From an uncultured Bacteroides sp. (GTDB taxonomy: Bacteria > Bacteroidota > Bacteroidia > Bacteroidales > Bacteroidaceae): a stretch of 64,000 nucleotides of DNA. The stretch lies in assembly GCF_905207245.1 (NCBI RefSeq), contig NZ_CAJLKP010000027.1, positions 171 to 64,170 on the forward strand. Reading direction: 5' to 3'. The notes under the pieces are model-generated. The model worked only from the letters and a program-made list of their open reading frames with translations. It was not told where the DNA came from and made no database searches. This document shows, piece after piece, positions 9,388-54,181 of the stretch. Position 1 is the stretch's first letter, and each line of letters starts with the position of its first letter. Made by a program: the position numbers and the translations under genes.

Positions 9388-9460
<73 letters not shown>

Positions 9461-30090: not shown

Positions 30091-33000
30091 ATGAGAAGAA
30101 AATGGATAAAATGGGTAGTATGGATACTGCTTACACCTGTTATACTGTTTGTAATACTGATGGTATTGCTCTACGTGCCTCCCGTACAAAACCTAATACG
30201 GAAACAGGCCACTGCAATAGCATCCGAAGCTACGGGTATGGATATATCCGTAGAGCGGATAGACCTCCGCTTTCCGTTGAACCTGCTGGTGCGCGGCGTG
30301 CAGGTGATACAGCCTGTGCAGGCTGACAAACAAATCGCTTCCGTCCCCGGTGACACCCTCGCCATGCGGCAAGTCTCTGACACCTTGCTGTTGCTCGAAA
30401 GCCTGAACGTGCGCGTGCAGGCATGGCCCTTGATACGGGGACAGGTGGAAGTGGATGAAGTAACTTTGAACGGTGTTTCCGTAAATTCCGCCAATCTGAT
30501 AGAAGGCATGCACCTGAAAGGTGTGCTGGGCCGCTTCTTCCTCGAAAGCCATGGCATCAATCTGAAGACGGAAGATGTCGTGCTCAATCGTATAGAACTG
30601 AGCGACACCCACATGTTGGTAGTGATGAACGACACCACCACTGCCGAACCGGACACTACTGCCACTACTCTCAATTGGAAAATAGCCCTGCACAAACTAG
30701 CGTTGAAAAACGTCTCCGTAGACCTGCAAATGCCTCTCGACTCCATGAGCCTCGACGCCCGTCTGGGCGAGGCGGAAATAGACGATGCCACTGCTGACCT
30801 CGGACGCCAAGCCTATGGTTTCAGGCAATTCCTGCTTAGCGGCACCTCTGTGAATTATGATACGGGCAGCCACCTTGCCAGTGCACTGAACAGCCTTATC
30901 GACACCGGCAGCCTTGCCAATGCCGACAGCACCTCCGTGAAGCCCCTTCCCGGTTTCGATGCTTCGCACATTGCCTTGCGGGATATACGCATCGGCATAG
31001 ACTCCGTGCTTTACGCCGGGCACAATATCAACGCCGTCATTCGCGAATTCTCCATGAACGAACGTTCCGGTCTGAGCGTTACCTCACTGACGGGACGGGT
31101 GTTTGCTGATTCCACTGTGATACAGGTACCGTTTTTAAAGCTCCTCACCCCGCATAGCGAGATGGACTTCACCGCGCAGACTTACTGGGAGTTAGTGGAT
31201 ATTCCTACCACCGGGCGATTGACCGCCCGCTTCAACGCCCGCATCGGTAAGCAGGATGTAATGCTCTTTGCTGGCGAACTTCCTGAAACTTTTAAGGAAG
31301 CCTATCCCTTCCGCCCCCTCACCATTCGTGCCGGAACGGAAGGTAACTTCAGGCAGATGCAGATTTCACGTTTCAACGTGGATTTGCCGGGCGCTTTCAC
31401 CCTTGACGGCGGCGGCGAAATATGGAACCTCACCGACAGTCTGACCCGCAACGGGAGCATCGACCTCGACATCCGCACTCAGAATCTGAACTTCCTTACC
31501 GGCCTGACAGGTGTCACTCCGGATGGCTCCATCGTGGTGCCGGACAGTATGCATCTGACGGCGCGTCTCACCATGGATGGCCCCAAGTACGATGCCACCC
31601 TGAAGCTGAAAGAGCGCGAAGGCGTGCTGAACCTGCTGGCACACTACAACACCGCAACTGAAGCCTATCAGGCGGACCTCAACGTGGATGCCCTGCAACT
31701 GCACCATTTCCTGCCCAAAGACTCTATTTATACCCTTTCGGCTAAAGTTGCTGCCAAAGGCCAGGGCTTCGACCCTGCCAACCACCGCACGGTGGCCACC
31801 CTGAAAGCCTCCCTCGGCGAATTGCAATACGGCCACTGGCACATCTCCGGTATAGACCTGACGGCGGGATTGAAATCCGCTCTTGCCACCGTGCACCTGG
31901 CGAGTGACAACCCACTCTTGAAGATGCAGGCCGAAGCCGATATGCGTCTGGACCGCAAGTATCTGGACGGTAAACTCGATATGAATGTGACGGAGGTGGG
32001 CTTGCATGAGTTGGGTATTTCGCCCAAACCCTTGAAGCATCCTTTCGCCTTCAATCTCGGTGCGGAAGCACGCCACGACTCCATCAAAATGAAGATGGAT
32101 GCAGGCGACCTTGACTTCCAGTTCCGTGCCCGCAGCACTCTGAAGAAACTGATAGACCAAGGCAGTGCTTTCGCCACACTTCTCACCAGACAGATAGAAC
32201 AGAAGCAGCTTGACCATGCCGAACTGCGGCGGGCGCTCCCCTCGGCCGGTATGCAACTGAAAGCGGGCAAGCAGAATCCCGTCAGTTACTTTCTGGTAAC
32301 GAAGGATATTTCTTTTAATGATCTCATTCTGCGCTTCGGCACCACACCCCAGCGGGGTATCAATGGCCGGACCGCTATACACGGTCTGCGCATGGATTCC
32401 TTGCAACTGGATACCATCTTCTTTGCCATCAGTCAGGATACTGCTCGCATGAAGTTGCAGGGCGGTGTTATCAACGGGCCGAAGAATCCTCAGGTTGTAT
32501 TCCGCAGCACATTGACGGGCGAAGTCCGCAACGATGATGCCGAACTGACTCTGAACTACGTGGATGCCAAGGGAGACACCGGTCTCGATCTCGGGGTCAA
32601 TGCCCGCCCACTCATTGAAGGCAGGGGGAGGGGCAATGGTATCGCTTTCCGCCTGACGCCCGCCGAGCCCATCATTGCCTTCCAAAAGTTCCATTTTGTA
32701 GATGGCAACAACTGGATTTACTTGCACAAAAATATGCGAGTCTATGCCAATGTGGACATGGACAGCAATGACGGACTCTGTTTCCGTATGCAGTCCGATA
32801 GGTCGGACACCGTTTCTTTGCAGAACATTAATCTGGAATTAATCCGTTTCCGTCTGGACAAACTGAGTGGTATCTTGCCCTATATGCCACGGATAACAGG
32901 ACTATTCTCAGCAGAAGCAAATTATATACAGACGGCAACTTCACTGCAAGTGTCGGCGGAAGCCGGTGTGGAAAACCTGACCTACGAACGCCAGCCGGTA

Positions 33001-34728
33001 GGTAACATCGGACTGGGTGCCACGTGGCTACCGGGTGATGCAGGTACTCACTACCTGAACGCTTATTTCCGTTCGGGAGATCAGGAAGTATTGACTGCCG
33101 ATGCTGTGCTGAAGCAGAAGAACGGACGCGATTCCATCGATGTCAATACCACCTTTGAACATTTCCCGCTTTCGCTTGCCAATGCTTTCGTTCCCGACCG
33201 TATGGTTGCCCTCACAGGTGATATTGATGGCGGGCTCTACATCAACGGCTCCCTGGAAAAGCCGAAGTTGAGTGGAGACCTTTCGTTGGACAGTGTATCG
33301 GTTTATGCCCGCCAGGCAGGCGCACGCTATTGGTTCGACAACCGTCCGTTGAAGATAGAAAACAATCAGCTTATCTTTAATAAGTTTGCCATATACACCA
33401 CCAGCCGGAATCCCTTTACGATAGACGGTAATGTGGACTTCCGTAATATGGAGAAGCCTACTGCGAAACTGAATCTGCGTGCCCAGAATTATACTTTACT
33501 CGATGCGCCCCGTACCAAGGAAAGCATGCTCTACGGTAAAATCTTCGTAGACCTGAATGCCACCGTACGCGGTCCGCTGGATGCGTTGACCATGCGCGGG
33601 AATATGAATCTGCTGGGTAATACGGATGTGACCTATGTGTTGACTGATTCTCCCCTGACGGTGGAGGACCGCTTGGGTGAGCTTGTGAAGTTCACTTCCT
33701 TTACGGATACCACTTCTGTACAGGCCACGGAAACACCGACCATGTCGCTTGGCGGTATGGATATGCTGATGTCTGTGCATATTGACGATGCCGTGCGCCT
33801 GCGTGCCGACCTCAGTCCCGACCGTAGTAGTCGCGTGGAACTTGAAGGGGGAGGAGACCTGAATCTGCAATATACTCCACAGGGCGATCTTACGTTGTCC
33901 GGTCGTTATACTTTGATTGGCGGTATGATGAAGTATGCCTTGCCTGTGATTCCTTTGAAAGAATTTCAGTTCACCAATGGCAGTTATGTCGACTGGACGG
34001 GGAATCCGATGAATCCCAAACTGAACCTGACTGCCACGGAGCGTGTCCGCGCTTCCGTCTCCGACGGCGATGACAATAGTGGCTCACGCATGGTAAACTT
34101 CGATGTGTCCATCAGCATTAAGAACAGTCTGGAAAACCCCGACCTGAGTTTCAACCTCAGCGCACCCGAGGATGCCAGCGTACAGAATGAATTGGCGGCA
34201 ATGAGTGCAGACGAGCGAAGCAAGCAGGCCATCACCATGCTTGCCACAGGCATGTATCTGTACAATGGGGGGAAAGGTGGTGGACTGACTATGGGATCCG
34301 CACTGAACAGTGTACTGCAAAGCCAGATTAATTCGTTAACCGGAAACCTTAAGAATGCATCTCTCAGTGTCGGTATTGAGGACCGCACTGCTGCCGAAAC
34401 CGGTGATAAACAAACGGATTATAGTTTCCGCTATTCGCAACGTTTCTTTAATGACCGTGTGCAGGTTATCATTGGTGGAAAAGTGTCCAGTGGTGCCAAT
34501 GCTACGAATGATGTAGAGTCGTTCATCGACAATATCTCACTGGAATATCGACTGGACAACAGTGGAACGCGCTATGTTCGCGTTTTCCATAACAAGAATT
34601 ATGAAAGTGTGCTTGATGGTGAAATCACTGAGACGGGTGTCGGTCTTGTACTCCGCCGCAAGATGGATAAGCTAAGCGAGTTGTTCATTTTCAAGAGAAA
34701 AAAGAAAATAGAGCCGGTAAGTGAATAA
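30091..34728 (+). CDS. tamB: translocation/assembly module TamB-like protein (AsmA/DUF490 family)
   Basis: 1545 aa. N-terminal TM anchor, very long beta-rich body, conserved C-terminal region (RYSQRFFNDRVQVIIGGKV...). Followed by a BamA/TamA-family gene. Confidence 0.82.
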   Translation: MRRKWIKWVVWILLTPVILFVILMVLLYVPPVQNLIRKQATAIASEATGMDISVERIDLRFPLNLLVRGVQVIQPVQADKQIASVPGDTLAMRQVSDTLLLLESLNVRVQAWPLIRGQVEVDEVTLNGVSVNSANLIEGMHLKGVLGRFFLESHGINLKTEDVVLNRIELSDTHMLVVMNDTTTAEPDTTATTLNWKIALHKLALKNVSVDLQMPLDSMSLDARLGEAEIDDATADLGRQAYGFRQFLLSGTSVNYDTGSHLASALNSLIDTGSLANADSTSVKPLPGFDASHIALRDIRIGIDSVLYAGHNINAVIREFSMNERSGLSVTSLTGRVFADSTVIQVPFLKLLTPHSEMDFTAQTYWELVDIPTTGRLTARFNARIGKQDVMLFAGELPETFKEAYPFRPLTIRAGTEGNFRQMQISRFNVDLPGAFTLDGGGEIWNLTDSLTRNGSIDLDIRTQNLNFLTGLTGVTPDGSIVVPDSMHLTARLTMDGPKYDATLKLKEREGVLNLLAHYNTATEAYQADLNVDALQLHHFLPKDSIYTLSAKVAAKGQGFDPANHRTVATLKASLGELQYGHWHISGIDLTAGLKSALATVHLASDNPLLKMQAEADMRLDRKYLDGKLDMNVTEVGLHELGISPKPLKHPFAFNLGAEARHDSIKMKMDAGDLDFQFRARSTLKKLIDQGSAFATLLTRQIEQKQLDHAELRRALPSAGMQLKAGKQNPVSYFLVTKDISFNDLILRFGTTPQRGINGRTAIHGLRMDSLQLDTIFFAISQDTARMKLQGGVINGPKNPQVVFRSTLTGEVRNDDAELTLNYVDAKGDTGLDLGVNARPLIEGRGRGNGIAFRLTPAEPIIAFQKFHFVDGNNWIYLHKNMRVYANVDMDSNDGLCFRMQSDRSDTVSLQNINLELIRFRLDKLSGILPYMPRITGLFSAEANYIQTATSLQVSAEAGVENLTYERQPVGNIGLGATWLPGDAGTHYLNAYFRSGDQEVLTADAVLKQKNGRDSIDVNTTFEHFPLSLANAFVPDRMVALTGDIDGGLYINGSLEKPKLSGDLSLDSVSVYARQAGARYWFDNRPLKIENNQLIFNKFAIYTTSRNPFTIDGNVDFRNMEKPTAKLNLRAQNYTLLDAPRTKESMLYGKIFVDLNATVRGPLDALTMRGNMNLLGNTDVTYVLTDSPLTVEDRLGELVKFTSFTDTTSVQATETPTMSLGGMDMLMSVHIDDAVRLRADLSPDRSSRVELEGGGDLNLQYTPQGDLTLSGRYTLIGGMMKYALPVIPLKEFQFTNGSYVDWTGNPMNPKLNLTATERVRASVSDGDDNSGSRMVNFDVSISIKNSLENPDLSFNLSAPEDASVQNELAAMSADERSKQAITMLATGMYLYNGGKGGGLTMGSALNSVLQSQINSLTGNLKNASLSVGIEDRTAAETGDKQTDYSFRYSQRFFNDRVQVIIGGKVSSGANATNDVESFIDNISLEYRLDNSGTRYVRVFHNKNYESVLDGEITETGVGLVLRRKMDKLSELFIFKRKKKIEPVSE

Positions 34729-34785
34729 TATGAATGATAATTTGTAGGGGTGAGTAGTTACACCCGCAAACATAAAGCAAAGAAG

Positions 34786-37134
34786 ATGAAGAAACTTGTA
34801 TATATACTCATTGCAACCCTGCTTCTGGCAGCTTGCTCCACTACTAAGCATCTGCCTGAAGGAGAAGTGCTCTACACCGGACAAAAGCCGATGATAGTGG
34901 AGAACCGTTCCGTGACCCCGGTTGGTGTGACGGCAATGGAAGAAGTAGAAGCAGCCCTTGCCAAAGCTCCCAACAACTCTCTGCTGGGTAGCTCCGAATA
35001 TCGCATCCCTTTTCCTTTCGGATTATGGGTATACAATGGCTTCAGCAAGTATAAAAAAGGTTTCGGTAAGTGGATATTCAATCGCTTTGCCGCTACTCCT
35101 GTATTTATGTCCACCGTCAATCCGGACATCCGCCAGAAGGTGGCAACGAACATCCTGCACGATTATGGTTACTTCAATGGCAAGGTCAGCTACCAAACCT
35201 TTGTGAACCCCAAAGACAGCCTGAAAGCCAAGTTGCAATATACTGTCGACATGCGCAACCCATACTTCATTGATACCGTTTATTATCGTGGTTTCAACGA
35301 TACCACCATGCGTATCATCAATCTGGGGCGCCGTCGCTCTCTCATCAGTCCGGGTGAACAATTCAATGTCACCGACCTTGATGGTGAGCGTACCCGTATC
35401 AGTGGCCTGTTACGTAATATGGGCTATTACTATTTTCGTCCCGACTATCTGACTTATCAGGCAGACACAACGCTTGTTCCCGGTGGGCACGTTAGTCTGC
35501 GCATAATACCCGTCCCCGGTCTGCCGAAAGATGCCGAACGTCCTTTTTTCGTAGGAAATACCAACTTCTATCTGCATGGTCCGCAGGGACAGATGCCGAA
35601 CGATAGTCTTTATTATAAGTCTTTCTGGATACACTACTACAATAAGTTGAAGATACGCCCCAATATGCTTTATCGCTGGTTGCACTATCAGGGTTATCAA
35701 AGAAAGCGTCAGGAACTGGATAAGGGAGGCATGCGCCGCCGTCCGGACAAATTGTACAGCCAGTATCGTCAGACCCGTATCCAGGAGCGTCTGGCAAGCG
35801 TAGGCATTTTCCGCTATCTGGAAATGCAGTACACTCCCCGTGATACCGCCCTCATTTCCGATACCCTTGACGTGAATATTCGCGCCATATTGGATAAACC
35901 GTATGATGCAGAGTTTGACTTCAACGTCACCATGAAAAGCAATAACCAGACGGGACCCGGCGCCGCTTTCACCGTAACCAAGAATAATGTTTTCGGTGGT
36001 GGCGAGACTTGGAATGTGAAAGTGAACGGTTCCTATGAATGGCAGACGGGCAAGAACAGCAGTTCGCTGATGAACAGTTACGAATTGGGATTGTCTTCAG
36101 CACTTACTTTCCCGCGCATCGTCTTCCCCCGTATGGGTGATAAGGAGTATGACTTTCCGGCTTCAACCACTTTCCGTGTCTACATAGACCAGATGAATCG
36201 TGCCAAGTACTACAAGCTGCTTGCTTTCGGTGGAAACGTCACATACGATTTTCAGCCTGTGCCCACCCGTAAGCATAGCATCACACCCTTCCAGTTGACG
36301 TTCAATGTACTTCGTAATCCCACTACGGCTTTTGAAGAAATACAAGCCCAGAATCCTGCGCTCTATGTCAGCCTCCGTAATCAGTTTATTCCTAAGATGG
36401 AATATACTTATACTTACGACAATGCTTCCCTGCGCACTGTTCGCAATCCTATCTGGTGGCAGACGACGGTGGCTTCCGCCGGTAATCTGACTTCCTTGAT
36501 TTACCGTGCATTCGGAGAATCGTTCAGCAAGGAAGATAAGAAACTGATGGGCGTCCCCTTTGCCCAGTTCCTGAAGTTGAATTCCGAGTTCCGCTATCAT
36601 TACCGGATAGATAAGAATCAGATGATTGCTTCCCGCATTGCAGGTGGAGTGATTTGGTCCTATGGAAATGCGACCACTGCGCCTTATACCGAGCAATTCT
36701 ATATAGGTGGTGCCAATAGTATCCGTGCTTATTCCGCACGTAGTATCGGCCCCGGTGGCTATCCGCCCAATAAGGAGAAGAAGTATTCTTATATTAACCA
36801 CGTGGGTGACATCCGCATGGAGGCAAACGTAGAATACCGTTTTCGTATCCTTGGTGATTTGCACGGTGCTATCTTCCTTGATGCCGGTAATGTTTGGTTG
36901 ATGCGTAAAGATGAGGCTCGGCCCAATGGAGAACTCACTTTAAAGAATTTCCCCAAACAGATAGCTCTGGGTACAGGTGCAGGTTTGCGTTACGATCTGG
37001 ACTTCCTCGTGTTCCGTTTGGACTGGGGAGTGGCACTACACGATCCGTATGAAACTGGGAAGAAGGGCTATTATAATATTCCGAAGTTCAAGGATGGCAT
37101 GGCATGGCATTTTGCAATAGGTTATCCGTTCTAA
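34786..37134 (+). CDS. BamA/TamA-family outer-membrane protein (surface antigen D15)
   Basis: Start moved to MKKLVYILIATLLLAAC. C-terminal barrel region (YIGGANSIRAYSARSIGPG...GTGAGLRYD...HFAIGYPF). Confidence 0.8.
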   Translation: MKKLVYILIATLLLAACSTTKHLPEGEVLYTGQKPMIVENRSVTPVGVTAMEEVEAALAKAPNNSLLGSSEYRIPFPFGLWVYNGFSKYKKGFGKWIFNRFAATPVFMSTVNPDIRQKVATNILHDYGYFNGKVSYQTFVNPKDSLKAKLQYTVDMRNPYFIDTVYYRGFNDTTMRIINLGRRRSLISPGEQFNVTDLDGERTRISGLLRNMGYYYFRPDYLTYQADTTLVPGGHVSLRIIPVPGLPKDAERPFFVGNTNFYLHGPQGQMPNDSLYYKSFWIHYYNKLKIRPNMLYRWLHYQGYQRKRQELDKGGMRRRPDKLYSQYRQTRIQERLASVGIFRYLEMQYTPRDTALISDTLDVNIRAILDKPYDAEFDFNVTMKSNNQTGPGAAFTVTKNNVFGGGETWNVKVNGSYEWQTGKNSSSLMNSYELGLSSALTFPRIVFPRMGDKEYDFPASTTFRVYIDQMNRAKYYKLLAFGGNVTYDFQPVPTRKHSITPFQLTFNVLRNPTTAFEEIQAQNPALYVSLRNQFIPKMEYTYTYDNASLRTVRNPIWWQTTVASAGNLTSLIYRAFGESFSKEDKKLMGVPFAQFLKLNSEFRYHYRIDKNQMIASRIAGGVIWSYGNATTAPYTEQFYIGGANSIRAYSARSIGPGGYPPNKEKKYSYINHVGDIRMEANVEYRFRILGDLHGAIFLDAGNVWLMRKDEARPNGELTLKNFPKQIALGTGAGLRYDLDFLVFRLDWGVALHDPYETGKKGYYNIPKFKDGMAWHFAIGYPF

Positions 37135-37177
37135 TTGTAAGTTTTGTACAATAGAACTAAATTATGAACTAATTGTC

Positions 37178-37185
37178 TACCTTTG
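37178..37185 (+). promoter_or_regulatory. -7 promoter box TACCTTTG (a second match TAATTTTG lies at 37202-37209)
   Basis: TAnnTTTG matches upstream of the ATG at 37259. Confidence 0.4.
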
Positions 37186-37258
37186 TTGGTTATATTTTTT
37201 GTAATTTTGCCAGCGTAATCAACAGTGATACACTAACCTATTTTTAATAATAACTAAT

Positions 37259-38170
37259 ATGAAACCAACTTTATTCTTATTGGCAGCCGGTATGGGCAGC
37301 CGTTATGGTGGCTTGAAGCAATTGGACGGATTGGGTCCCAATGGCGAGACTATTATGGATTACTCTATTTACGATGCTATTAACGCTGGATTCGGTAAGC
37401 TCGTGTTCGTTATCCGTAAGGATTTTGAGAATGACTTCCGTGATAAAATTATTTCCAAATACGAAGGTCACATTCCGTGCGAACTGGTATTCCAGTCTAT
37501 TGACGACCTGCCCGAAGGCTTTACTTGTCCCGAAGGTCGTACAAAACCTTGGGGAACCAACCATGCTGTAATGATGGGTGCCGATGTAATTAAAGAACCG
37601 TTTGCAGTGATCAACTGTGATGACTTCTATGGTCGCGATTCTTTCCAGGTGATGGGAAAGTTCCTTTCTGCACTGCTTGAAGGTTCAGAGAATGTATACT
37701 CTATGGTAGGTTTCCGTATCGGCAACACGTTGAGCGATAGTGGTACGGTGTCTCGTGGGCTTTGTGGCACGGATGCCAAGAATCTGCTGACTTCTGTTGT
37801 TGAACGCACTAAGATTCAGCGCATGAATGGCGAAGTGAAATATGTAGATGATAATGGTGAGTGGGTAGCTACTCCCGAAACTACTCCGGTAAGTATGAAC
37901 TTCTGGGGCTTCACTCCCGATTACTTTGGATATAGCTGCGAGTTCTTCAAGAGCTTCCTGAGCGATCCGAAGAATATGGAGAACCTGAAGAGCGAATTCT
38001 TCATCCCGTTGATGGTGGATAAGTTGATTCAGGACGGCACTGCTACGTGCGAGGTGCTTGACACTACGAGTAAATGGTTTGGCGTGACTTATCCTGAAGA
38101 CCGCCAGAGCGTTGTAGATAAAATCCAGGCTTTAGTGGACGCAGGTGAATATCCTGCCAAGCTGTTTTAA
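37259..38170 (+). CDS. sugar-phosphate nucleotidyltransferase-family protein
   Basis: N-terminal LLAAGMGSRYGGLKQLD (the GxGxR nucleotide-binding loop of NTP-transferases). Confidence 0.72.
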   Translation: MKPTLFLLAAGMGSRYGGLKQLDGLGPNGETIMDYSIYDAINAGFGKLVFVIRKDFENDFRDKIISKYEGHIPCELVFQSIDDLPEGFTCPEGRTKPWGTNHAVMMGADVIKEPFAVINCDDFYGRDSFQVMGKFLSALLEGSENVYSMVGFRIGNTLSDSGTVSRGLCGTDAKNLLTSVVERTKIQRMNGEVKYVDDNGEWVATPETTPVSMNFWGFTPDYFGYSCEFFKSFLSDPKNMENLKSEFFIPLMVDKLIQDGTATCEVLDTTSKWFGVTYPEDRQSVVDKIQALVDAGEYPAKLF

Positions 38171-38256: not shown

Positions 38257-39939
38257 TTAGAGGCGTATGCTGGCTTCGCAGGATTCTGCTACGGCGGGGT
38301 GGTGGGTGATGAAGATAAAAGTCTTTCCTGTGCAGTCTCTGCGCAGGTTCTTTATTAATTGCCGTTCGGTTTCGGGGTCGAGGGCGGAAGTGGCTTCATC
38401 TAATAATAAGATGTGTCCCGGGCGGAGGAGTGCACGGGCGATGGCGATGCGTTGGGCTTGTCCTTCGCTGAGGCCGCCACCTTGTTCGTTGAGACTGGTG
38501 TCGATGCTTTGCGGAAGAGAAAAGACAAAGTCGGCACAAGCGGTGCGGAGGGATTGGAGCATCTGGGTTTCCGTGGCATGAGGATTACCCATGAGGAGAT
38601 TGTCACGGATAGTACCACTGAAAAGGGTATTTCCCTGGGGAACGTAGACGAAGTTGGCACGTGTTTGTGGAGAAACCTTGAGAGTTGAGAGTTGAGGCAA
38701 TGCTGCGTTGACAGATGAAGAATTGTGGTTACTTGCAGGGCCTAAAAATCTTTTGCCTATAAGAGTGATGTCTCCTTCTTGAGGGGTAGTGAGAGCGAGT
38801 AACAGACGGATAAGAGTGGTCTTACCGGCACCCGTCTCACCTAAAACAGCAGTACAACTTCCGGCGGGGAAGTTGCAGGAGAAATGATTCAGTATAGGGC
38901 GGTCGCCTGGCGAATAACTGAAGGTAATATCCTTTAGTTGCAAATCCGGCGTTGTTTCAAAGAATTCCGATTCTCCGGTCGTTTCAGCAGGCAGTTCTTC
39001 CAGTTCCATTAATCGCTCCACGGCGGTGAGGGCGTTGATAAACGAAGGCAGCAGGCGCGAAAGGTCGAGTGCAGGGCGTTGCACTTTGCCTACTAATTGT
39101 AGGAAAGCAGTCATCGTTCCGAAGGTTATGCTGCCTGTGCTGAGGCGGACGGCTCCCCAAAGAAAAGCAGTGAGATAACCGCCGGAGAATGCGAAGGCTA
39201 CCAGTGTGCGTGCCGATAATGAAAAGCGGGTGCGTCCGAATATCTGGCTACGGAGAGCATCTTGCAAGTCATCCAATTTATTGATATGCCGTTCGCCCTG
39301 TTCCAGTGTTTTGATAACAGTGCGGTGTTGCAGGCTCTCCTGGATGACGGATTGAATACGGCTATCACTTTGCCGGATTTCCCGGGTATAGCGGCGCATC
39401 CGTTTCATGTAGAAGCGGCTGCCGAGAAGAAAAATAGGTAGGATTCCTACAACTACCCATGGCAGGGACGGGTCGAGTAGACAGAAGAAAATGAATGCAG
39501 CCAGTAACTGGACAATGGTGACAATAAAAGCGGGGATTGTACTGGTCAGTAGTCCTACGATGGCGGCAGTGTCCTGCTCCACCCGGTTTACGATGTCTCC
39601 GGTGTGGAAACGTTCCAGTTCGTTCCAACGGCTTTGCAGTAGTCGGGAGAAGAGACGGTGGCGCAAGGCATTTCCGGCTTCTACCTGCATACGGGCACTG
39701 AGCCAAGTGTCGGCGGCACTGCAAAGAAGCTGTGCTATCAGTAGGGCGATGGTGAGGAGGGCGGCATGAGTCAGGCGTCCGGTTGCGGCACCTGTGGCGA
39801 TGTCTATGACGACTTTAGAGGCGTAGATAAATGCAAGAGAGACGCCTACACCGATAATTCCGGTGAAGCAGGAGAGAAGGATGCGTCCTCGTTGTCCGTG
39901 GGAGACTTCCCGGACGTATTTTAGCTGCGCTGTCTTCAT
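38257..39939 (-). CDS. ABC exporter (fused TMD-NBD), no C39 peptidase domain
   Basis: 560 aa. Six TM segments in the N-terminal half. Walker A GETGAGKTT, signature LSEGQAQR, Walker B LLLDEATSALD. About 20 extra residues lie between Walker A and the Q-loop. Confidence 0.88.
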   Translation of the reverse strand: MKTAQLKYVREVSHGQRGRILLSCFTGIIGVGVSLAFIYASKVVIDIATGAATGRLTHAALLTIALLIAQLLCSAADTWLSARMQVEAGNALRHRLFSRLLQSRWNELERFHTGDIVNRVEQDTAAIVGLLTSTIPAFIVTIVQLLAAFIFFCLLDPSLPWVVVGILPIFLLGSRFYMKRMRRYTREIRQSDSRIQSVIQESLQHRTVIKTLEQGERHINKLDDLQDALRSQIFGRTRFSLSARTLVAFAFSGGYLTAFLWGAVRLSTGSITFGTMTAFLQLVGKVQRPALDLSRLLPSFINALTAVERLMELEELPAETTGESEFFETTPDLQLKDITFSYSPGDRPILNHFSCNFPAGSCTAVLGETGAGKTTLIRLLLALTTPQEGDITLIGKRFLGPASNHNSSSVNAALPQLSTLKVSPQTRANFVYVPQGNTLFSGTIRDNLLMGNPHATETQMLQSLRTACADFVFSLPQSIDTSLNEQGGGLSEGQAQRIAIARALLRPGHILLLDEATSALDPETERQLIKNLRRDCTGKTFIFITHHPAVAESCEASIRL

Positions 39940-39989
39940 GCTTTATCTTTTTAATATGATTAGCTACGCGGGAAAGTGTATTGCAATCT

Positions 39990-40256
39990 TTATTCTATGA
40001 TTCCGGCTTTCAACCAGTCCTCTGTCACTTGGCGGGCATCGCGTGCGGCGGTGTCGGCTTCTACTTCGTAGTGTTCCGTAAGGTAGGCGGCGAGCGTTTC
40101 GGCATCGAACTCTTTATTTTCTACATTTTTCCATAGCCGGGCAGCTGTGGGGTTCAGACTGATGATGTTACTGAAATCTACATTGCCGGTGCCGCTCTGC
40201 ATGATGACGTATTCGTCACCGACTTGGTGGAGGGTAAAGCCTTTTTTGATTTTCAT
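39990..40256 (-). CDS. PqqD-family protein (candidate RiPP recognition element)
   Basis: Start moved to MKIKKGFTLHQVGDEYVIM (88 aa). The pattern ...LNPTAARLWKNVENKEFDAETLAAYLTEHYEVEADTAARDARQVTEDWLKAGII matches the PqqD winged-helix layout. Confidence 0.72.
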   Translation of the reverse strand: MKIKKGFTLHQVGDEYVIMQSGTGNVDFSNIISLNPTAARLWKNVENKEFDAETLAAYLTEHYEVEADTAARDARQVTEDWLKAGIIE

Positions 40257-40276
40257 GGGTGGTATATTTATTAATG

Positions 40277-40732
40277 TTAGATTCTTCTGAATATCGCCAG
40301 CAACCAGCGCCTTATAGGCATCAACTTCATCCACCAGTAGGAATATCGCTGCCAGGTTCGCCCGTTGCAAGGGTATTCCTTGTCTTTGCGTATGGCGGCA
40401 ATCATGATTCCCATGACATCCGTTATATGGGTCTGTTCGGTTACTTTCAGGTTTCCGTCGCCTAGGAGTGTTAATTCCTGTCCGTTGCGGCGGATGATAC
40501 GATGGAAGACGATGCGTCCCAGACTTTCCCTTGCCAGAACAACAGCACCCGGTTGCAAGTCTGCTTCGGTGAAGGGACCTACGACGATGCGGTCGCGGCG
40601 GTCCACAAGAAAGGGATTCATGCTGTTGCCCCGTATGATTAACGTCACGGTATGCCCTTCGTTGATGAGGCGTGCCACTTCGGGGAGTAATACCTCATTG
40701 GGGATGATTCTTTTCTGTTCGTTGCTTATCAT
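40277..40732 (-). CDS. S24/S26-family serine peptidase, apparently Ser/His (S26B/SipW-like) type
   Basis: 151 aa. Nucleophile motif RGNSMNPF. A downstream GRIVFHRII sits where S26A enzymes have xxKR(V/I). No N-terminal TM. Confidence 0.7.
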   Translation of the reverse strand: MISNEQKRIIPNEVLLPEVARLINEGHTVTLIIRGNSMNPFLVDRRDRIVVGPFTEADLQPGAVVLARESLGRIVFHRIIRRNGQELTLLGDGNLKVTEQTHITDVMGIMIAAIRKDKEYPCNGRTWQRYSYWWMKLMPIRRWLLAIFRRI

Positions 40733-40736
40733 TTGC

Positions 40737-41657
40737 TTACTTGATGGTGTTGAAACTCAGTTCGGCTGCCGCCTTGTCGGGCCGGCATTTCAGATGATAG
40801 ACCGGCAGGTTGGCGGCAAGAAGTTTCACGGTTTCTATCACGCCATTGTTCAGTTCTTCCACTGCTTTCAGGCAGGAACAGGAGGGCAACAAGGAAGCGA
40901 ATGCACGTGCTGCCCCTTCCCTTTTTATGATATTTTCCGGTGCCTGCTCCAAGCGGACGAATGCGCCTACCGGAACAGAATCGTTCTTGTAGCAAGGCGT
41001 CTTTCCACTCCAGGGCGAACCGTAGACGGTGGCTCCTCCGGTTTCCTTATTATAGTGGACGATAGGATTATCGTCATTCAGTAACTCGCAACCGGGAATA
41101 TTTTCTAACCACAACCGGGTGTGCGTGCTCTTTCCCGTTCCGCTTTTCCCTAAGAAGAGGTAGCCTTTTCCATCTTTCTTGATGACGGAGGCATGCATCA
41201 GCACGGTATCCATGCAGGCAGTCCTGAATGCATACACCATCATCAGTATATTATTGAGTACGAACGCATCTGCTTCTGTGTGGTGCAAAAACAACGTACC
41301 TGTGGCAAAGCCGGAGTGGAAACAGGCTGAATATTCTTTAGTATCGTTCGGTGCAAGGATGGTGATGAGGTATGAGTCGGTACCGGTCATTACGCTGATT
41401 CTGCACGTGGCACCTTCCCACTCAAACTCTGTGAGCTGGTGGTATTGCGAATTATCTTCCTCGTTACTCCCTTTTTCCAACTGAATGTTGAGTGAGAATA
41501 TAATCTTACTCTTGCTTTCCGGAATTTCTTTTTCCGGCAACAGGAAAGGGCTCAGGGAAGGGATAAGTTCCTCTGACTTCCAGCCTGGAATAGGAGATGA
41601 AGTGCCGAACAGGTAGGGACCTACCCGGAATAGTTGCACATTGCGTTCCTCTTTCAT
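40737..41657 (-). CDS. HPr-kinase-like P-loop protein
   Basis: 306 aa. GYLFLGKSGTGKSTHTRLWL...LLNDDNPIV resembles the HprK C-terminal catalytic core (GxSGxGKS ... DD). Confidence 0.6.
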   Translation of the reverse strand: MKEERNVQLFRVGPYLFGTSSPIPGWKSEELIPSLSPFLLPEKEIPESKSKIIFSLNIQLEKGSNEEDNSQYHQLTEFEWEGATCRISVMTGTDSYLITILAPNDTKEYSACFHSGFATGTLFLHHTEADAFVLNNILMMVYAFRTACMDTVLMHASVIKKDGKGYLFLGKSGTGKSTHTRLWLENIPGCELLNDDNPIVHYNKETGGATVYGSPWSGKTPCYKNDSVPVGAFVRLEQAPENIIKREGAARAFASLLPSCSCLKAVEELNNGVIETVKLLAANLPVYHLKCRPDKAAAELSFNTIK

Positions 41658-41879
41658 TCTTTTTTTGTATAGTAATTGGGTTGCTGTTTGTATATACGAC
41701 GTAAAGGTAGATGTATTCTTCTAATTTACCAAAGCTGCCGGAAGGATAATTCATTAGGAAGTTATATCTCTGCGTCTGATATATATTAGTAAATCTGAAT
41801 CCTCAGTGAAAGTAACAGAAATGTTGTATCAGATGTCTTCTTTCTGACTATAATTTGAAGACAAACTGCCGGAAATGAC

Positions 41880-41887
41880 TACCTTTG
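41880..41887 (+). promoter_or_regulatory. -7 promoter box TACCTTTG
   Basis: TAnnTTTG match 30 nt upstream of the ATG at 41918. Confidence 0.5.
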
Positions 41888-41917
41888 CAGTCTTGAACGC
41901 TAAATTTCATTGACACT

Positions 41918-52260: not shown

Positions 52261-53707
52261 TATATGGAAATCATTGGATTGGGTGACGATTTGCGTTTAT
52301 CTGATTCTTATCGTATTTGGATGGTTCAGTGTCTGCGGGGCAAGTTATGACTATGGCGACCGCGACTTTTGGGATTTCTCAACCCGTGCGGGTAAGCAGT
52401 TGGTGTGGATTATCTGTTCTTTCGGTTTAGGGTTTGTATTGCTGATGTTGGATGATGATATCTATGATATGTTTGCCTACCTGATTTATATAGCGCTTGC
52501 CATATTGCTTGTAGTTACCATATTTATAGCTCCTGATACCAAGGGCTCCCGGTCGTGGCTGGTGATGGGACCTGTCAGTTTGCAGCCGGCAGAGTTTGCC
52601 AAGTTTGCCACGGCATTAGCACTTGCCAAGTATATGAATTCCTATTCGTTCACCATGAAGAACTGGAAGAACATACTGATGATGGTTTCTCTTATCCTAC
52701 TCCCGATGGTGCTGATTATCCTGCAACGAGAAACGGGTTCTGCACTGGTATACACTGCATTTTTTCTGGTATTGTACCGGGAAGGGATGCCGGGTGTGGT
52801 GTTATTCTCCGGCTTGTGTGCGGTTGTCTATTTTGTGGTAGGCATCCGTTTCGATCAGGTATTTATTGCCGATACACCGACACCGATAGGGGAGTTCGCA
52901 GTGCTGTCTATGGTACTTTTGTCTGCTGCAGGTATGGTATGGGTGTATAAAAAAAAGTGGGAACCTGTACGCAATATACTATTGGTTACGGTGGGGGTGT
53001 TACTGATAGCTTATATTATCTCAGAACATGTGGTTCCGTTCAATCTGGTTTGGGTACAGTGGGGATTATGCATTCTGGTGGTAGGGTATCTTATTTTTCT
53101 TTCTTTGAGTGAGCGACATCTCAGCTATTTCCTGATAGGCTTGTTTGCTATCGGTTCTATCGGTTTTCTGTATTCAAGTGATTATTTCTTTAATAAAGTA
53201 CTGGAACCGCATCAACAGATTCGTATCAAGGTAGTATTGGGTATGGAGGAAGATTTGACTGGTGCAGGATACAATGTGAATCAGTCTAAAATTGCTATCG
53301 GTTCGGGAGGATTGACCGGGAAGGGATTCCTGAATGGTACGCAGACCAAACTGAAATATGTGCCCGAACAGGATACGGATTTTATTTTCTGCACGGTAGG
53401 CGAGGAGGAAGGATTTATCGGTTCTACTGCCGTATTGCTTCTATTCCTTATATTGATACTTCGCCTGATAGCTGTGGCGGAACGGCAACCGTCTGTTTTC
53501 GGCAGGGTGTATGGCTATTCGGTGCTCAGTATATTCTTGTTCCACCTATTTATAAATATAGGTATGGTACTGGGATTGACGCCTGTGATTGGTATCCCTC
53601 TACCATTCTTTAGTTATGGCGGCTCCTCTCTCTGGGGCTTCACTATCCTGTTGTTCATCTTCTTGCGAATTGATGCAGGACGTAAAAAAAGACTTTCAGC
53701 GTTTTAA
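52241..53707 (+). CDS. rodA: rod-shape-determining protein RodA (SEDS family)
   Basis: 488 aa polytopic protein. QPAEFAKF, DTDFIFCTVGEEEGFIG, PLPFFSYGGSS. Confidence 0.9.
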   Translation: MVTRRDSIWKSLDWVTICVYLILIVFGWFSVCGASYDYGDRDFWDFSTRAGKQLVWIICSFGLGFVLLMLDDDIYDMFAYLIYIALAILLVVTIFIAPDTKGSRSWLVMGPVSLQPAEFAKFATALALAKYMNSYSFTMKNWKNILMMVSLILLPMVLIILQRETGSALVYTAFFLVLYREGMPGVVLFSGLCAVVYFVVGIRFDQVFIADTPTPIGEFAVLSMVLLSAAGMVWVYKKKWEPVRNILLVTVGVLLIAYIISEHVVPFNLVWVQWGLCILVVGYLIFLSLSERHLSYFLIGLFAIGSIGFLYSSDYFFNKVLEPHQQIRIKVVLGMEEDLTGAGYNVNQSKIAIGSGGLTGKGFLNGTQTKLKYVPEQDTDFIFCTVGEEEGFIGSTAVLLLFLILILRLIAVAERQPSVFGRVYGYSVLSIFLFHLFINIGMVLGLTPVIGIPLPFFSYGGSSLWGFTILLFIFLRIDAGRKKRLSAF

Positions 53708-54181
53708 TTTAATTCCTATGTCATTGATGCCGGGAAGTACTTCGTCCGGTAGCAGGTGTGTGATTTTAAAGCGGTATTCTCCGACTTTTCCAATGCGAAT
53801 AAGTCCTGCGGAGAGTGTCGATTGATATAATCCGCCCCAACCGTCACCCAGCCAGATGCCTGCACTGTCGGCAAGTTTCAGTTCTAATGTATCCCTTTTG
53901 ATGTTCTGGGCTTCCGGGCTGTCGTAATAAATAAGAAGAGGCAGGTTCTGATAAGGATAATTGTTTCGGTTTCTGACTTCTACGGATACGTTGTAGAGCG
54001 TAGCGGAGTCCGGAACCATCACATTGAAGAATAGTGTATCTTTCCTCTGCCACCCTTCCGTTGGCAGAGATTGAAAGGTATGATATACCGTCTGTTCGTC
54101 GCAAGCCATGCAGAGGCTTGCGGCAAACAGTAGTATCAAACTCTTTTGGAGAAACGTCTTATGCTTGAGCTGGCTTTTCAT
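53696..54181 (-). CDS. GldH-like lipoprotein
   Basis: Start moved to MKSQLKHKTFLQKSLILLFAASLCMAC (lipobox). About 160 aa. The sequence (VYHTFQSLPTEGWQRKDTLFF...RNRNNYPYQNLPLLI) and its position after a PSP1 gene match my memory of the GldH family. Confidence 0.55.
   Translation of the reverse strand: MKSQLKHKTFLQKSLILLFAASLCMACDEQTVYHTFQSLPTEGWQRKDTLFFNVMVPDSATLYNVSVEVRNRNNYPYQNLPLLIYYDSPEAQNIKRDTLELKLADSAGIWLGDGWGGLYQSTLSAGLIRIGKVGEYRFKITHLLPDEVLPGINDIGIKLKR

Follow-up and report, generated by a model that had tools for sequence, protein, structure and literature searches.

Linear polyphosphorylated peptides (LPPs) have been defined in Bacillota as a family of RiPPs (peptides synthesized by the ribosome and modified after translation), with the core genes lppK, lppB, lppS, lppN and lppD and the precursor gene lppA (Popov et al., Nat Commun 2026;17:6633; PMC13381572). 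LppA carries a YxxPxVLxHQxIxFET leader, LppK is an HprK-like kinase, LppB a discrete PqqD-type RiPP recognition element (RRE), LppS a SipW-like signal peptidase, LppD an MsbA-like exporter and LppN an NTP_transf_5 (PF14907) protein (PMC13381572). Here we analyzed a cassette of four genes, encoding a P-loop kinase, a Ser/His peptidase, a PqqD-like protein and an ATP-binding cassette (ABC) exporter, in a 64,000-nucleotide stretch (hereafter the window) of an uncultured Bacteroides sp. (GCF_905207245.1, contig NZ_CAJLKP010000027.1, positions 171 to 64,170). The cassette is probably a Bacteroides version of an LPP-type RiPP pathway, with every step projected by homology from the Paenibacillus system.

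In the reference system, heterologous expression yielded one to four phosphates on Ser3, on the precursor as well as on the core peptide; deletion of lppK abolished the +80 Da series, deletion of lppS left the leader uncleaved, cleavage by LppS required LppB, and LppN displayed no activity (PMC13381572). The catalytic residues of LppS are S29, H68 and D93, and N33 and D70 of LppB hold the Pro and Tyr of the YxxP leader motif (PMC13381572). The authors regarded LPPs as confined to Bacillota, where they were found in 80 of 9173 Bacilli genomes and have been gained and lost many times; the clusters reside in capsule loci with precursors of up to 200 aa, and in some genomes the RRE or the precursor lies ‘elsewhere in the genome’ (PMC13381572 and its supplement). 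The supplement also lists, as a separate and unstudied network cluster, a few Bacteroidota signal-peptidase–ABC fusions with an adjoining RRE (PMC13381572).

Two further groups of systems come close to the cassette. Paeninodin/pseudomycoidin-type lasso clusters (A, C, B1, B2, K, N, D) resemble it and its relatives in an HprK-like kinase, there phosphorylating a precursor serine, a PqqD-type B1 protein, a PF14907 protein and an ABC exporter, but the window lacks a macrolactam cyclase and a transglutaminase-type B2 protease, and its leader peptidase is a serine enzyme. The SynChlorMet (ScmC, ScmD, ScmE/F) and HPr-rel-A systems likewise couple a P-loop protein related to ScmC/HprK with a member of the PqqD family, in a combination that is uncharacterized; whereas in SynChlorMet two radical-SAM/SPASM maturases are encoded next to ScmC and ScmD, no radical-SAM/SPASM gene was listed around the cassette, and neither radical-SAM nor YcaO enzymes appeared in the gene calls with precomputed Pfam assignments (L001–L006, L087 and L089), as had been noted from the window alone. 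We know of no S24-type peptidase in the SynChlorMet and HPr-rel-A systems.

Compared with the LPP cluster of Paenibacillus alginolyticus DSM5050, the window cassette is alike in its PF27840 kinase, PqqD RRE and MsbA-like exporter, in having no cyclase, in a soluble SipW-like Ser/His peptidase of 151 aa that has a helix at its N-terminus and a hydrophobic tail at its C-terminus, and in the PF14907 transferase found in close relatives of the locus. It is unlike in residing in Bacteroidota, another phylum than Bacillota, in its gene order (K-S-B-(N)-D versus A-K-B-S-D-N), in having neither a cis lppA nor a YxxPxVLxHQxIxFET-type leader nearby, and in lacking lppN; in the Bacteroidales clade lppN and lppD are often lost or unlinked, and the spread is broad and apparently vertical as opposed to the few Bacilli genomes. 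The preliminary description of this DNA, which knew of no described function for the combination of genes, had itself named a match to a characterized pathway as the outcome that would speak against it, and the LPP family, described and partly reconstituted in 2026 (PMC13381572), is such a match. The combination being already described, the finding is not categorically new; the Bacteroidales clade departs from the described family in its phylum, in having no cis precursor, in often having lost or unlinked lppN and lppD, in its gene order and in its distribution.

Alignments of the individual proteins carry this assignment. Queries for LppS, LppB and LppA were taken from Supplementary Data 1 of PMC13381572, and those for LppK and the lasso proteins from a Paenibacillus frigoriresistens locus (L090) whose LppS orthologue is 97% identical. 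BLASTP aligned the window peptidase with LppS (WP_029196374.1) at 34% over 92 aa (E 1e-7), and the peptidase family matched the LppS family over 136 columns (hhalign 98.6%, E 1.4e-15). The peptidase–LppS alignment spans the N-terminal helix and the C-terminal tail, and places S37 opposite S29 and H77 opposite H68. The PqqD family likewise matched the LppB family (hhalign 97.2%, E 3.6e-11), with N35 and D73 opposite the leader-contacting N33 and D70 of LppB. For the kinase family, the alignment with the L090 LppK orthologue, itself a member of the same Pfam family PF27840, covered 176 columns (hhalign 98.3%, E 1.6e-14), and that with the neighbouring lasso kinase 98 columns (96.4%, E 1.2e-9).

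Consistent results were obtained when the Paenibacillus genes were searched by phmmer against all open reading frames (ORFs) of 87 sources, namely the window and 86 related loci. LppK matched the kinases of all 87 sources (best E 4.5e-17) and the neighbouring lasso kinase those of 56 (best E 5.5e-6); LppS gave 56 matches and LppB 6, and lasso B1, lasso cyclase and lasso B2 gave 0 each. Judged by these sequence comparisons, LppK and LppB, rather than their lasso paralogues, are the nearer relatives of the Bacteroidales kinase and RRE. The likeness to phosphorylated lasso-peptide clusters minus cyclase and B2 protease, pointed out before, was thereby borne out: neither an asparagine-synthetase-like cyclase nor a transglutaminase-type protease was present in the window or the 86 related loci, and no lasso cyclase or B2 family stood in the precomputed Pfam lists of the neighbours. 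A split lasso pathway, whose cyclase, B2 protease and precursor genes would sit at other sites of the genome, could draw on the fact that kinase, PqqD, PF14907 and ABC proteins form the accessory set of paeninodin-type clusters and that a lasso B1 protein is the closest solved structure to the PqqD family. However, the zero matches to the Paenibacillus cyclase and B2 protease in the 87 sources, the cassette's own LppS-type leader peptidase and the nearness of its kinase and RRE to LppK and LppB make such a pathway exceedingly improbable.

The kinase had been taken for an HprK-type protein, and this held for the superfamily fold and the P-loop, but not for the family, which is ScmC (precomputed as Pfam PF27840), or for the whole fold, which is nearer to phosphoenolpyruvate (PEP) carboxykinase. 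Against local hidden Markov model (HMM) libraries it scored weakly, its best NCBIfam match being TIGR04249 (ScmC, E 2.6e-6, 27 bits versus a cut-off of 125), followed by TIGR04352 (HprK_rel_A, E 8.9e-5, 21.7 bits versus 200) and PEP carboxykinase (E 2.9e-4), and it stayed below the HPr kinase/phosphorylase cut-offs as well (TIGR00679, E 0.017, 14.4 bits versus 240; PF07475, E 0.1, 12.6 bits versus 33.3). The supplementary ‘HprK kinase’ group of the LPP study is best matched by TIGR04249, TIGR04352 and TIGR04355 (PMC13381572), and the models best matching that group are those matching the window kinase. All 81 kinase sequences share the P-loop GKSGTGKST and the NDD motif, and H155, S172–H179 (P-loop), N194–P198 (NDDNP) and P215–T220 (PWSGKT) are kept in at least 80; a four-cysteine metal site was considered and dropped, as C222 and C291 alone are conserved. 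For some orthologues the gene call adds 32 aa at the N-terminus (338 aa).

An AlphaFold2 model of the kinase (pLDDT, the predicted local distance difference test score, 91.2) matched PEP carboxykinase over its whole length in Foldseek (E 1e-8), above HPr kinase/phosphorylase (HprK/P), which was matched in the P-loop domain (E 1e-4); PDB sequence searches with the kinase profile and with the peptidase profile returned no significant match. The motifs run parallel to those of PEP carboxykinase (MHAS/MHCS, GKSGTGKST/GLSGTGKTT and NDD/GDD). With HPr kinase/phosphorylase and ATP-dependent PEP carboxykinase the window kinase thus has in common the PEP carboxykinase-like P-loop fold and the motif order His, GxSGxGK[ST], [GAN]DD; it differs from them in lying outside the family cut-offs and in having no counterpart of YAGEMKKG, a PEP carboxykinase segment that we take to be the Mn/substrate site and that fell opposite non-lysine residues in one alignment to a PEP carboxykinase. 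Given the weak family scores and the likeness in fold and motifs, ‘HprK-like’ is right for the fold and motifs, and the kinase is a member of neither the HprK nor the PEP carboxykinase family.

These structural matches, the motif parallels and the UniRef label of one orthologue, ‘phosphoenolpyruvate carboxykinase’, could also be read as marks of a PEP carboxykinase-like small-molecule kinase that acts on a non-ribosomal substrate, with the PqqD protein as a generic adaptor. This is very unlikely, given the non-lysine residues opposite YAGEMKKG in that single alignment, the requirement of LppK, from the same Pfam family, for peptide serine phosphorylation (PMC13381572), and the occurrence of peptidase fusions together with an RRE keeping its leader-binding Asn and Asp, which favour a peptide substrate.

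The 151-aa protein, earlier described as a Ser/His S24/S26-type peptidase, retained this description. It fell narrowly under the cut-off of Peptidase_S24 (E 1.8e-4), and its model (pLDDT 73) matched LexA C-terminal and lambda-repressor catalytic domains (LexA, E 2.5e-4). G35-x-S37-M-x-P-F (RGNSMNPF), H77-R78 (FHRI), G91-D-G-N94 and E99 are kept in at least 74 of 76 peptidase sequences, and His77 occupies the general-base position in 75 of the 76. The Ser-Met-x-Pro, His-Arg and Gly-Asp-x-Asn boxes presumably represent the endoplasmic reticulum (ER)/archaeal-type (SipW/Sec11) signal peptidase pattern, and the general base of LexA is Lys. In the model a short N-terminal helix (16–24) precedes the catalytic serine, no N-terminal membrane anchor was seen, and the C-terminus forms a Trp/Arg-rich tail. 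The window peptidase shares the beta-barrel catalytic fold of SipW/Sec11 (S26B) and LexA/UmuD (S24), but differs in the lack of a visible membrane anchor and in its genetic tie to an RRE and a kinase, and from LexA/UmuD in the His replacing the dyad Lys, in lacking a LexA-like DNA-binding domain and in a Ser37 too near the N-terminus for a self-cleavage site ∼35 residues upstream.

The PqqD-like nature of the 88-aa protein was confirmed by an HMM search (PF05402, E 7e-15, 55.5 bits versus a cut-off of 23.4). Its N35 and D73 are present in every one of 69 sequences, suggesting, from conservation in sequence, a YxxP-type leader as the ligand. Among solved structures, the lasso RRE TfuB1 came closest to the family (E 7e-5), and the LppB structure 9X8Z was absent among its PDB matches. 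The exporter contains ABC_membrane (PF00664) and ABC_tran (PF00005) and nothing else, so that no peptidase domain accompanies them and the absence of C39 stood as described; MsbA-type models were among its best (TIGR02203, MsbA, E 6e-65; TIGR02204, E 1e-60; both under the cut-offs), and it aligned with the Paenibacillus LppD orthologue at E 1.8e-55 (phmmer). An MsbA-like exporter is, however, a generic feature and discriminates little for LPP membership. In a Phocaeicola locus (L009:5528–9221), an ABC exporter and a further, divergent PqqD paralogue (105 aa; Ser in place of the conserved Asn) lie upstream of peptidase–kinase–PqqD, so that this cluster has two recognition proteins.

A scan of one genome per GTDB species retrieved a kinase relative in at least 596 species genomes, mostly of Bacteroidales (Bacteroidaceae, Prevotellaceae, Rikenellaceae, Muribaculaceae, Parabacteroides and Alistipes), and among the matches listed the carriers outside this order were one Sphingobacterium metagenome-assembled genome (MAG) and two Fibrobacter MAGs. 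The peptidase family comprises 748 clusters at 50% identity (E ≤ 1e-10). In 80 loci fetched from these species, the peptidase gene adjoined the kinase gene in 75, the PqqD gene in 67 and the ABC exporter gene in 39, a clustering far above chance, which answers positively the question, raised earlier, of whether the four genes co-occur across Bacteroidota. K-S-B-(N)-D was the commonest order; the exporter gene, and sometimes the PqqD gene, is unlinked in many genomes, and in a Rikenellaceae-type group the peptidase gene diverges from kinase–ABC, with PqqD 2.5 kb off in one such locus. Fusions recurred between kinase and peptidase (P0048, P0347, P0370, P0409 and P0423, ∼430–490 aa), peptidase and PqqD (P0367, 285 aa) and peptidase and ABC exporter (P0319, 686 aa); in P0379 and P0380 the peptidase is fused to NlpC/P60-like and RseP-like segments.

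These data bear on whether the cassette might be a relic of a lasso or LPP cluster that has lost its core enzyme and precursor and makes no product. Although precursor, cyclase and PF14907 gene were all not found in the window, a relic is highly improbable: the ORFs are intact, the catalytic residues are conserved in 69–81 species, the peptidase family is large, the operon spacing is tight and gene fusions recur. Taken together, these features indicate that a functional unit is under purifying selection.

Plasmid and phage records contain almost no relatives of the kinase. One relative (30% identity, E 1e-14) is encoded on a 243-kb Bacillota megaplasmid of Butyrivibrio fibrisolvens (NZ_CP146964.1:186476–186985); it may be a member of an LPP or lasso cluster and a bridge between the two phyla. 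In a Bacteroidaceae MAG (L075:10152–14046, minus strand), PqqD–PF14907–ABC directly follows a polysaccharide-type operon of sugar transferase, WecB/TagA-like, glycosyltransferase and O-antigen-polymerase-like genes, as assigned by sequence reading alone; the kinase gene there is convergent and has no adjacent peptidase gene. This setting echoes the capsule-locus context of the Bacillota LPP clusters.

Two components of the LPP pathway are missing from the window. An HMM built from PF14907-like neighbours detected no PF14907 gene in the 64 kb, and the gap between the PqqD and ABC genes, where relatives may hold it, measures only 50 nt. A PF14907-like gene of ∼375 aa with the motif GDIDLYVG occurs in 14 of the 80 loci; in L087, whose kinase is 75% identical to that of the window, and in L089 the gene calls identified it as PF14907 NTP_transf_5, located after PqqD in both and between PqqD and ABC in L087.

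The other missing component is the precursor, and the earlier statement that none was visible was upheld by ORF clustering, pattern search, leader HMM and phmmer alike. An HMM of eleven LppA leaders, run over 2.1 million residues translated in six frames from the window and related loci, reached E 0.17 at best, LppA gave 0 phmmer matches in the 87 sources, and the regular expression [YW]xxPx9Fx[TA] returned nothing credible. Clustering of ORFs of at least 35 aa between about −7 and +8 kb in the 80 loci recovered cassette genes, shadow ORFs and lineage-specific neighbours only, so that the short conserved ORF suggested to travel with the cassette was not found across genera. The window's own intergenic ORFs yielded no precursor, those of the 260-bp upstream region being neither conserved nor LppA-leader-like, and manual reading revealed none around the cassette in the outlying loci L073 (Sphingobacterium), L046 (Fibrobacter MAG), L009, L075 and L089. 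The substrate is encoded elsewhere or is too divergent to be recognized.

Three candidates were rejected. A secreted protein of ∼155 aa, found in ∼25 Prevotellaceae/Bacteroidaceae loci (L011:7180–7659 and 24 others) and encoded upstream of the kinase gene, between it and rpoD, has a conserved core and a Lys/Glu-rich tail; it carries a signal peptide, is absent from the window and reflects lineage synteny. An ORF of 62–89 aa beginning MADNYLEKK, with RKAKEQR following and a variable C-terminus, lies beside the peptidase gene in 3–4 Rikenellaceae-type loci only (L013:6978–7199, L025:1182–1451 and L060:5696–5884) and has no YxxP. A 44-aa ORF of the window (54034–54168, plus strand) with YDIPSV is a chance-level YxxPxV match whose sequence is absent from the protein collection.

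Under the LPP-type assignment, a ribosomal precursor encoded elsewhere in the genome would be captured by the 88-aa PqqD protein via a YxxP-like leader motif contacted by Asn35 and Asp73, and the ScmC/LppK-type kinase would use ATP to place one phosphate or several on a serine close to the beginning of the core peptide. The Ser37/His77 peptidase would dock on the PqqD–leader complex by its N-terminal helix and cut off the leader, probably favouring the phosphorylated form, and the MsbA-like exporter would carry the linear phosphopeptide over the inner membrane. In close relatives the PF14907 nucleotidyltransferase would attach a further group to the phosphate; with no PF14907 gene in the window, the product there would stop at the phosphorylated stage.

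Several observations weigh against this assignment. Sequence identity to the validated LPP proteins is just 25–34%. The window peptidase is unmatched by TIGR02228, the model defining LppS in PMC13381572, and its relatives match that model weakly. D93 of LppS falls opposite the non-acidic T98, beside the near-invariant E99, so that the third catalytic residue is ambiguous, with E99 or D92 as possible substitutes. No precursor was found in the window, its flanks or the related loci, and blastp-short clustering of 471 intergenic ORFs of 12–90 aa gave same-species matches only, none being conserved across genera. The distribution looks vertical and broad, compared with patchy in Bacilli, which makes a different substrate class possible. 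For the reference system itself, the LPP study names neither an end product nor a role (PMC13381572).

As an alternative, this set of proteins might process and export a larger protein of housekeeping type or an envelope component, perhaps linked to capsule or outer-membrane biogenesis. It would fit the apparently vertical spread over at least 596 species, the rarity on plasmids, the lack of a cis precursor, the closure of a polysaccharide-type operon by PqqD–PF14907–ABC in L075, and the capsule loci and long precursors (up to 200 aa) of the Bacillota LPP clusters (PMC13381572). It would also fit the constant position beside a nucleotidyltransferase–Omp85/TamA–TamB block in three Bacteroides species (window, L004 and L087), in which the kinases of the other loci are 46–75% identical to that of the window. 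The flanks differ in other genera, however, so that the TamAB neighbourhood is local synteny; moreover, every characterized PqqD-type RRE binds a dedicated precursor peptide, and no candidate protein substrate was identified. We consider this alternative unlikely, if less so than the small-molecule kinase or the relic. The earlier suggestion that the cassette may belong to the conserved core genome, and not to an accessory bacteriocin island, would fit the wide spread, the constant position in three Bacteroides species and the scarcity on plasmids. Returning to the LPP-type assignment, a broader version of it is tentative, being possible but doubtful: in gut and rumen Bacteroidales (Bacteroides, Phocaeicola, Prevotella, Alistipes, Parabacteroides, Muribaculaceae and others) the triad might be a vertically inherited, near-core LPP-like machine acting on a substrate encoded elsewhere, for which a larger protein or a peptide tied to capsule or envelope might be considered in place of a classical secreted RiPP.

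The ORF table and the sequence of the window bore out the packed arrangement previously described, with four co-directional minus-strand genes spaced by 4, 20 and 50 nt from kinase through peptidase and PqqD to exporter, and 260 bp upstream (Table 1). For the PqqD gene we used the ATG start (MKIK...) employed by all homologues, the longest ORF, from TTG, being 126 aa. The 260-bp region presumably holds the operon promoter, judging from its position alone; no Rfam family was matched in it, and promoter and terminator scans together with Rfam added nothing. Identical cassette proteins are encoded on contigs of an uncultured Bacteroides (GCA_902472515.1), and the 90%-identity clusters take in proteins of B. 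oleiciplenus and B. stercorirosoris. The public names are ‘hypothetical protein’ or ‘phosphoenolpyruvate carboxykinase’ for the kinase, and ‘S24/S26 family peptidase’, ‘PqqD family protein’ and ‘ABC transporter ATP-binding protein’ for the others. The flanking nucleotidyltransferase-like protein, whose Pfam matches are all sub-threshold and whose cluster has 2134 members, is not the PF14907 enzyme of the LPP pathway.

Table 1. Positions of the cassette genes and of other features in the window
Feature	Position	Strand	Size	Remarks
Kinase	40737..41657	-	306 aa	lppK-like P-loop protein; ScmC family PF27840; PEP carboxykinase/HprK-like fold
Peptidase	40277..40732	-	151 aa	lppS-like putative leader peptidase; soluble archaeal/ER-type signal-peptidase-like Ser/His enzyme
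PqqD protein	39990..40256	-	88 aa	lppB-like PqqD-type RiPP recognition element
ABC exporter	38257..39939	-	560 aa	lppD-like, MsbA-type, fused transmembrane and nucleotide-binding domains, without C39 domain
Upstream region	41658..41917	none	260 bp	shared with divergent ABC-F gene
TamB, Omp85/TamA and sugar-nucleotidyltransferase-like block	30091-38170		1545, 794 and 303 aa	flanks the cassette
Single tRNA gene	9388-9460	-		sole Rfam match in the window
Stretch without long ORF	53707-54168		∼450 bp	no Rfam match

If the broader, near-core version of the LPP-type assignment is true, polyphosphorylated ribosomal products would be widespread and so far unrecognized in the dominant gut phylum. The homologous kinase–peptidase–RRE unit, present in at least 596 species, many of them from human gut or rumen, would extend the LPP family across phyla, and genes now annotated as ‘hypothetical protein’, ‘phosphoenolpyruvate carboxykinase’ or ‘S24/S26 family peptidase’ would gain a pathway context. 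The absence of a cis precursor turns the substrate into a concrete, testable question, and Bacteroides would offer a second, genetically tractable setting for studying the function of polyphosphorylated peptides.

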